From a virus: 64,000 nt of DNA. Each line of letters begins with the position of its first letter. Positions within the stretch are counted from its first letter, which is position 1. The stretch lies in the IMG/VR virus record IMGVR_UViG_3300042522_000315, positions 20,105 through 84,104 of that record, one strand, 5' to 3'. The notes beneath the pieces are model-generated. The model was not told the DNA's origin and ran no database searches. It worked only from the letters and a program-made list of their open reading frames with translations. Both the position numbers and the translations under genes were made by a program. This document shows positions 43,436-43,711 of this stretch, one piece after another.

Positions 43436-43476
43436 TTGACAACCTAATAAAATCCTGCTAGGATGTTGTATAAATA
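43436..43476 (+). promoter_or_regulatory. Tandem sigma70-like and T4 late promoters
   Basis: TTGACA-17-TAGGAT with extended TG; TATAAATA at 43469-76. Confidence 0.7.
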
Positions 43477-43500
43477 GAATACAGTTTAAGAAAGACGAAA

Positions 43501-43581
43501 ATGAAACATTATTACCCATTCACGATTAATCAAGAGACACGCCAGCCAGCATGGGCAGGTGTGATGAGGGGTTCTATGTAG
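43501..43581 (+). CDS. Putative attenuator leader peptide MKHYYPFTINQETRQPAWAGVMRGSM
   Basis: 26 codons between promoter and terminator; contains GGGGTT complementary to the terminator 5' arm. Confidence 0.6.
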   Translation: MKHYYPFTINQETRQPAWAGVMRGSM

Positions 43582-43608
43582 TTAAGTCATCGTAAAGACT
43601 TAGTTTTT

Positions 43609-43644
43609 AAAACCCCGAAGCGAAAGTTTCGGGGTTTTTCTTTT
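43609..43644 (+). terminator. Intrinsic terminator (putative attenuator)
   Basis: AAAACCCCGAAGC-GAAA-GTTTCGGGGTTTTTCTTTT. Confidence 0.85.
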
Positions 43645-43711
43645 AAAAAAGTGCTTGCAAAGACCGAATCAGTGTGATATATTCTTTTTGTAACTGATGA
43701 GGAGAAGCTGA

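Follow-up and report, generated by a model that had tools for sequence, protein, structure and literature searches.

A candidate leader-peptide attenuator upstream of the main tRNA block of an uncultured T4-like phage

Introduction

How does a phage set the transcription of its own tRNA genes? These genes are usually discussed as helpers for codon usage or as spare parts against host defences that cleave tRNAs, and to our knowledge hardly anything is known of how their expression is controlled. The question is raised by a short segment of a 64,000-nucleotide stretch of virus DNA, hereafter the window, which comprises bases 20105–84104 of an 84-kb IMG/VR virus record (IMGVR_UViG_3300042522_000315) estimated to be about half complete. 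The segment, at positions 43436–43648 of the window on the + strand, is located between a first group of tRNA genes, which ends at 43427, and the main tRNA run, which starts at 44181. A first-pass annotation had described in it a promoter, a 26-codon open reading frame (ORF), a terminator and a pairing able to act as an antiterminator, all of which are present, and had proposed that together they form a leader-peptide attenuator ahead of the tRNA genes.

Enterobacterial leader-peptide attenuators control amino-acid biosynthetic operons. Based on an analysis of the segment and its relatives, we consider it likely that the segment acts as a transcription attenuator, operated by the ribosome through a leader peptide, and that it feeds the main tRNA block of the phage. 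The unit probably ties tRNA transcription to the decoding performance of ribosomes. The proposal of an attenuator before the tRNA genes is supported by an architecture that recurs in six or seven sequence types, by its link to tRNA arrays, and by a match between the composition of the leader and the downstream tRNAs in relatives.

Anatomy and proposed working of the unit

The unit opens with promoter 1 (43436–43464, + strand), which consists of a −35 element TTGACA (43436–43441), a 17-nt spacer and a TGn-extended −10 element TAGGAT (43459–43464, with the TG at 43456–43457), and which scores 10/12. An A-tract lies immediately upstream of it and the transcription start is expected at about 43471. 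The leader ORF follows at 43501–43581 (26 codons and a TAG stop; MKHYYPFTINQETRQPAWAGVMRGSM), behind a weak Shine-Dalgarno sequence, and is kept in all members of the family described below. Within the ORF are region 1 (codons 5–9, 43513–43525), which is C-rich and in the minimum free energy (MFE) fold can pair with region 2 as an anti-antiterminator, and hairpin A (43538–43563), which has 9 bp and a 1x1 internal loop. Region 2 (GGGGTTCTA, codons 23–25, 43568–43576) is the 5′ strand of the antiterminator. It ends 3 nt before the stop codon, such that a ribosome at the stop would cover it. Downstream are hairpin B (43582–43603, 7 bp), which the antiterminator stem encloses, and region 3 (TAAAACCCC, 43608–43616), which duplex tests and covariation identify as common to the antiterminator and the 5′ arm of the terminator. 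The intrinsic terminator, at 43609–43648, has a 13-bp stem (43609–43638), a GAAA loop and a T5CT4 tract.

Regions 2 and 3 pair at eight of nine positions, with one C.A mismatch, and the stem is kept in relatives, in agreement with the suggestion that an antiterminator excludes the terminator. The 181-nt transcript folds better than shuffled sequences (z = −5.25). No Rfam 15 family other than tRNA was matched over 42300–48000 at E ≤ 1, save for a chance-level match of Yfr10 to the terminator (E = 0.64; 27 bits against a cut-off of 43). The loci of six relatives searched at E ≤ 0.5 gave no match either, T-box included. A generic scan for a terminator combined with a short ORF and an antiterminator, run on the window and on all the loci of relatives, found no second unit in the window.

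In the mechanism that we propose, the strong early-type promoter would start the transcript and the first 26 codons would be translated. A fast ribosome would reach the stop codon and mask region 2, so that the terminator (3:4) would form and most transcripts would end near 43645. Were charged tRNA scarce, the ribosome would stall in roughly codons 2–16 and region 2 would stay free to pair with the terminator 5′ arm (2:3, around hairpin B), such that the polymerase would continue into a 72-residue gene, a tRNA-like RNA and the tRNA genes. The outcome would be negative feedback, in which more phage tRNA would speed translation of the leader and raise termination. We infer from the features of the unit and its relatives that the ORF is translated and that stalling would permit read-through in response to a physiological trigger; anticodon nucleases as that trigger, an example given in the first-pass annotation, are possible but speculative.

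A family of units with the same parts in unlike sequences

Relatives of the unit were sought in IMG/VR and in JGI/ENA metagenomes, with hairpin A and the 22-nt terminator core (CCCCGNNGCGAAAGTTTCGGGG) as queries. The search of viral and metagenome contigs gave about 25 distinct copies, which fall into six or seven types by sequence. Window-like copies make up type A, and type A′ comprises L011 and L013. Type B is characterized by the peptide MTNTPKHNDYIICRMPEGFWMVGACA, type C is represented by L030, type D by L032 and L046, type E by L020, L054 and L056, and type F by L024. One match, L055, was rejected as a chance match within a protein gene. Unrelated terminators with the identical 22-nt core, 21 in number, served as controls. 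A cultured relative of the unit was not found among 50,697 phage records, in which megablast and blastn searches with the window unit and the type B and type F units matched only neighbouring tRNA genes; none of the GenBank phages has the unit.

The types share little sequence beyond the terminator core, yet they have identical parts in identical order: the ORF, a hairpin within it (equivalent to hairpin A, of different sequence), a G-rich segment at the ORF end, a second hairpin and the terminator. The leader ORF has 23–37 codons across types and lies about 20–30 nt behind the transcription start. A near-consensus promoter is present in types A–E, and none is evident for type F. Promoter 1 of the window is conserved in L003, L005, L009, L027 and L031. 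The first-pass annotation had described tandem promoters, the second of them at TATAAAT (43469–43475, + strand, read directly from the sequence). A tandem arrangement is not clear in the window, where the motif has no good −35 element; it is the −10 hexamer usual in relatives (L004, L008, L011, L013 and types B–D), each of which has TTGACA 16–17 nt upstream of it.

Two observations were made during the search that concern other elements. The 22-nt terminator core was also found behind cobalamin-riboswitch-like cores in L057 and L069, contigs of Lachnospiraceae metagenome-assembled genomes, which means that switches unrelated to one another reuse this hairpin sequence as their expression platform. 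Types B and C have a further conserved element, about 100 nt long, in the interval from the terminator to tRNA-Trp (L029 5337–5439; also L015, L022, L030 and L044). Its hairpin covaries around a conserved loop (GCTACTC/GAGTAGC versus GGTAGCC/GGCTACC) and has no Rfam match.

Alternative structures are maintained in relatives

Duplex and fold energies were computed for each sequence and compared with those of dinucleotide shuffles and of the control terminators. In every relative, the best partner of the terminator 5′ arm is a segment at the ORF end, 33–39 nt before the core (27 nt in one copy). The resulting 2:3 duplex has energies of −13 to −23 kcal/mol in the relatives, with P ≤ 0.01 against shuffles in most copies, whereas the 2:3 stem is weak in 20 of the 21 controls. 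A strong 2:3 duplex was seen in 1 of 10 metagenome controls, which itself proved to be a further unit (type F), and in 1 of 12 bacterial-genome controls (L060, within a coding region). The stem is built from wholly different sequences in the different types: GGGGTTCTA/TAGAACCCC in type A, GGGGGC..GTGC/GCAC..GCCCCC in types B and C, GGGGGCTA/TAG.CCCCC in type D and GGGCCTC/GAGGCCC in type E. When nascent RNA was folded with its first 14 codons masked, as by a stalled ribosome, and cut before the terminator 3′ arm, each of the 14 sequences tested, which represented all types but F, had as its MFE structure the 2:3 stem with hairpin B inside it.

Covariation was assessed within and between types. 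In types A and A′ the antiterminator is 96.7% paired and has one A-U to G-C double change; the comparison of relatives proposed in the first-pass annotation found both the short ORF and the 2:3 pairing conserved. The terminator is 100% paired in the same types, with one compensatory series of G-C, G-U and A-U, and its lower stem covaries at three pairs across types. Hairpin B is 97.5% paired in type A and shows an A-U to G-C double change among type B variants. Hairpin A has two pairs changed on both sides in type A, and in L009 a compensatory C-G to U-A change in this hairpin came at the price of two amino-acid replacements. RNAalifold applied to a cross-type alignment recovered the terminator alone, because the helices shift by 1–2 columns between types. 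Pairing of codons 3–9 with the G-run (1:2) is seen in the MFE folds of most types.

Evidence bearing on translation of the leader

An open ORF of similar size is present in all of the approximately 25 copies, and the remaining two frames carry stops. All five indels within the ORF are multiples of three, and the indels in the 5′ leader and between hairpins are of 1–2 nt. The stop codon is 1–8 nt past region 2 in most types, just before region 2 in type E and 21 nt beyond it in type F. Region 2 would thus be masked by a ribosome terminating at the stop in all types except F.

One RNA-library contig of a type A relative begins at codon 2, spans the terminator and continues for another 76 nt, which is a weak hint of expression, as the contig may be DNA. 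Three metatranscriptome runs yielded small shares only, in the form of contigs and mostly of tRNA parts, in which starts, ends and levels are not legible.

The reading frame in the window has a peculiarity at its end. It stays open past the TAG until a TGA at 43675–43677, from which it had been suggested that a suppressor tRNA of the phage could add feedback. The open frame was confirmed, and it is not conserved: the window alone combines a TAG with a long frame, while the leaders of relatives end in TAA and their frames close soon after. The single 1-nt insertion of the window sits exactly at the stop and creates the TAG. A tRNA gene of the amber-suppressor type (anticodon CUA, labelled 'Pyl' by ARAGORN) occurs at 52229–52302; L005 spans the matching Gly-GCC to Val stretch without it. 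The presence of a CUA tRNA and a TAG-ended leader in one phage may be a coincidence, or may reflect a link between suppressor and switch.

Leader composition follows the downstream tRNA genes

All types have a tRNA array on the same strand downstream of the unit, whereas none of the 21 controls has tRNAs downstream. The array begins Asn-Lys-Asp-Pro-Trp in type A; it is Trp followed by Cys-Phe-Asp-Glu-Ile-Met-Lys-Arg in type B, Pro-Pro-Arg-Cys in type D, Asn-Gln-Gln-Gly-Thr-Thr-His-Phe-Pro-Arg in type E, and Ala-Lys-Lys-Asn-Thr-Asn-Val, with Ala-Val-Ile-Ile-Thr further on, in type F. In types B and D, the stretch from the terminator to the first tRNA contains no promoter-like site.

Where the array is small, as in types D, E and F, the leader is enriched in the amino acids of the tRNAs that follow. 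In type F, among codons 2–23 of its leader (MFNSTTIKVIAVNAIAVNTTANK...), 20 of 22 residues are Ala, Lys, Asn, Thr, Val or Ile (P < 5e-6 against pieces of real proteins), and these are exactly all six specificities of the 12 tRNAs in the locus. In addition, the leader uses GTC and GTG, AAA and AAG, and ACA and ACG, and for each of these pairs two isoacceptors are present. Interspersed with the tRNA genes of the L024 contig are genes for an IF3-like protein and for a second protein that has a KxDG ligase-like motif (3115–3714 and 10255–10764), which suggests a large phage with translation and RNA-repair genes. Type E leaders draw 14–17 of 22 residues from the downstream tRNA set (P 0.002–0.02) against 1 of 22 from the upstream set, and they contain all eight of the downstream amino acids (P 0.008). 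In the type D leader, Pro, Arg and Cys account for 8 of 24 residues (P ~0.01), and the type B leader contains all nine amino acids of its array (P 0.016).

The leaders that precede large arrays (types A, A′, B and C) contain 15–18 different amino acids in 26–28 codons, compared with a mean of 13.4 in pieces of the long ORFs of the window. The leader of the window has 17 amino acids in its 26 codons, with no run of one codon. It had been pointed out as diverse in both amino acids and codons: the number of amino acids is indeed unusual (P(≥17) = 0.021), but its 21 distinct codons are not (P = 0.25). It samples 15 of the 21 downstream anticodons (P 0.03), and its synonym pairs CAA/CAG and ACG/ACA correspond to phage tRNAs Gln-UUG with Gln-CUG and Thr-UGU, respectively. 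Because the codons in the leader are a sample of those read by the downstream tRNAs, the tRNA product would shut off its own transcription, and with 17 amino acids in the leader and about 25 tRNAs in the block, the switch would report general decoding capacity. A large array with a diverse leader fits the idea of a switch that senses any tRNA, for which direct support in the window is modest.

Weighing the attenuator against other explanations

Several observations weigh against an attenuator. The 2:3 duplex of the window is the weakest of the family, at −10.5 kcal/mol (P = 0.077 against shuffles). In the lineage of the window, a compensatory G-C to A-U change in the terminator left the C.A mismatch in the 2:3 stem, and since the mismatch was created by the terminator's own change, the terminator looks to be more constrained than the switch in the window. 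For the 1:2 pairing, most copies do not differ significantly from shuffles; L030 and L032 alone clearly exceed them, and L043 does so marginally (P = 0.03). Translation of the ORF would start from a near-random site in type A, where the Shine-Dalgarno energies are −1.4 to −2.1 kcal/mol; random sites give −1.9 and long ORFs a median of −5.2. The site is better in type F and in L020 of type E. The ratio of non-synonymous to synonymous polymorphism (pN/pS) of the leader peptide, 0.4–0.7, indicates weak purifying selection; such values fit a frame that must be read while its peptide is of little importance. Directly after the terminator in the window and type A is promoter 2, with an extended −10 element (TTGCAA-17-TATATT with TG, 43655–43683, + strand), so the tRNAs need not depend on read-through. 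It is kept in L003, and its counterpart in other type A copies, TTGAAA-17-TATATT, is further downstream. The caution in the first-pass annotation that a promoter here could bypass the attenuator was therefore well placed.

The match of leader to array also has its limits. The type C leader showed no composition match to its array, and the excess of Pro, Arg and Gly is partly due to the C- and G-runs that the structure requires. Counted from the peptides, about five residues of the type D set of Pro, Arg and Cys are already present in other leaders, so the match in type D is weaker than its P value suggests. The sample is biased, most copies having been reached via one terminator motif. Lastly, the type E units lack a U-tract after their strong hairpin (L020 1304–1340; L056 3740–3790), which lies about 30 nt before tRNA-Asn. 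These hairpins are not canonical terminators, and any regulation there may not use intrinsic termination.

If the unit is not an attenuator, it could be a stand-alone early gene for a micropeptide of 26–27 residues with its own promoter and terminator, in which case the pairing would be incidental and the proximity to tRNA genes a matter of conserved gene order. Very small early peptides are indeed known from T4-type phages, Stp with its 26 residues being one. A promoter and terminator bound the unit, another promoter follows in type A, and the ORF is conserved with indels that keep its frame. We nevertheless regard a micropeptide gene as unlikely, because the peptide is poorly conserved, with the pN/pS values given above and almost no residues shared between types, while the RNA helices are kept, in hairpin A of L009 even at the cost of amino-acid changes. 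Nor would a micropeptide account for a leader composition that follows the downstream tRNAs, or for a 2:3 stem maintained with different sequences. That stem would likewise go unexplained, being significant in all types and weak in nearly all controls, if the element were simply a terminator, constitutive and leaky, whose role is to insulate against or dose the transcription that arrives from promoter 1 and the upstream tRNA genes, with a second conformation of no regulatory use. The imperfect antiterminator of the window, the better preservation of the terminator helix and the ability of promoter 2 to supply the downstream genes all agree with a leaky terminator, but the conserved ORF and the match of leader to tRNA set do not, and we find it improbable.

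The same low standing is given to a third explanation, in which the ORF is untranslated and the unit is a small non-coding RNA (about 170 nt) or else a switch that responds not to the ribosome but to some other factor, be it a protein, a tRNA or a metabolite. Here the weak Shine-Dalgarno sequence and the strong, conserved fold would be as expected. Stable small RNAs whose function is not known are encoded in the tRNA region of T4. Attenuator transcripts released at the terminator can themselves be trans-acting, as described for rnTrpL (PMC6614838). However, an untranslated RNA would not be expected to have, in every type and despite unrelated sequences, an ORF of similar length with its stop beside region 2 (21 nt past it in type F) and indels that preserve the frame. 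A pocket for a ligand or tRNA would be expected to leave a conserved loop or bulge sequence, and none is conserved across types; the absence of matches to Rfam families, T-box included, points the same way. A ribosome-operated attenuator is the reading we prefer.

The tRNA block and the source phage

The gp41-type helicase encoded in the window has 61–64% identity to homologues of cyanomyoviruses and of the OM43 phage Melnitz, and this similarity identifies the source as an uncultured T4-like phage; it is a freshwater phage. ARAGORN identified 29 tRNA genes in the window, every one on the + strand. The group upstream of the switch comprises Leu-UAA, Met, Ile-UAU and Leu-CAA. The first part of the main run (44181–47501, + strand) encodes Asn, Lys, Asp, Pro, Trp, Ala, Thr, Ile, Gln, Lys, Glu, Met, His, Gln, Cys and more, and the run extends to 54740, the block encoding about 25 tRNAs. 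On the + strand after the switch there is a strong hairpin at 55236, before which only four other terminator-like hits were found (47077, 47082, 52620 and 53037). These have stems of 5–6 pairs, and two of the four are within a tRNA gene.

The first gene downstream of the switch (43712–43930, + strand) encodes 72 residues behind a strong Shine-Dalgarno sequence and belongs to no known family. It is missing from most type A relatives, and the distant homologues of its product are P0002–P0004. The first RNA gene past the switch (44039–44178) is a tRNA-like cloverleaf (Rfam tRNA, 33 bits, 44087–44154) flanked by a long inverted repeat, and L011 has a matching layout at 1640–1790.

Other unusual genes were noted among the tRNAs. 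The tRNA-Ile(UAU) gene at 43083–43174 is odd in being 92 nt long and is kept in relatives. An odd gene of 82 nt at 46667–46748 could not be assigned by ARAGORN, which gave it a two-base 'anticodon', and has a weak tRNA-Sec-like Rfam match (30 bits). A gene for a SegE-type GIY-YIG homing endonuclease (44475–45083; Pfam PF19835; PHROG 314, E = 5e-37) lies within the tRNA block, a placement as for segB in T4.

Known systems and significance

The units share much with the enterobacterial attenuators (trpL, hisL, pheL and leuL, and the multivalent thrL and ilvGMEDA), which have been modelled in PMC1183508. In common are a short ORF soon after the promoter, alternative 2:3 and 3:4 helices, with a predicted 1:2 helix, that end in an intrinsic terminator, and a stop codon placed so that a terminating ribosome would mask region 2. 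Relatives of types F, E and D also share the runs or excess of regulatory codons. Unlike in the enterobacterial systems, it is phage tRNA genes and not biosynthetic enzymes that lie behind the switch, and the product that would be sensed is, by way of charged tRNA, the tRNA itself. The window further differs in having no run of a single codon, a weak region 1 and a second promoter past the terminator.

A literature search of full texts found no published attenuator for phage or cellular tRNA genes, and the nearest precedents are two cellular systems. The upstream ORF (uORF) of mycobacterial whiB7 (wblC) is of diverse composition, with every amino acid but Cys in M. smegmatis, is coupled to an antiterminator and a rho-independent terminator, and senses general translation stress (PMC10274678). 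Expression of whiB7 is induced by knock-down of tRNAs, tRNA synthetases and amino-acid synthesis, and the composition of the uORF decides which shortage is sensed (PMC10274678). The phage unit likewise combines a diverse uORF with an antiterminator and a terminator. It has no sequence relationship to whiB7, where the uORF is enriched in Ala and the gene controlled is not a tRNA gene but encodes a transcription factor that serves drug resistance and the supply of alanine. The second precedent is the long tRNA array (trn operon) on a megaplasmid of Anabaena sp. PCC 7120, which is expressed more strongly under impaired translation (PMC8421152, PMC10272220). This too is a supernumerary tRNA array induced under translation stress, but one on a cyanobacterial megaplasmid and controlled by a transcriptional repressor, TrcR; an attenuator, leader or terminator is not mentioned in either report.

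A broader reading of the family, to which we give an even chance, is that phages autoregulate their tRNA supply by attenuation. The leader would be a test strip made up of the codons that the downstream tRNAs decode, such that a shortage of any of them would raise transcription and ample tRNA would close the switch, the copy in the window being a 'pan-tRNA' version. The shortage could come from a mismatch with host codon usage, from host shut-off, from starvation or from a tRNA-cleaving defence. If the attenuator reading is true, such units would provide compact sensors of tRNA availability for synthetic biology. The family would also offer natural 'specific' (types D, E and F) and 'general' (types A, B and C) versions of the switch for comparison. 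For the phage itself, it would mean a direct feedback from decoding speed to tRNA supply, in which the logic of the trp operon is applied by a virus to the translation apparatus.

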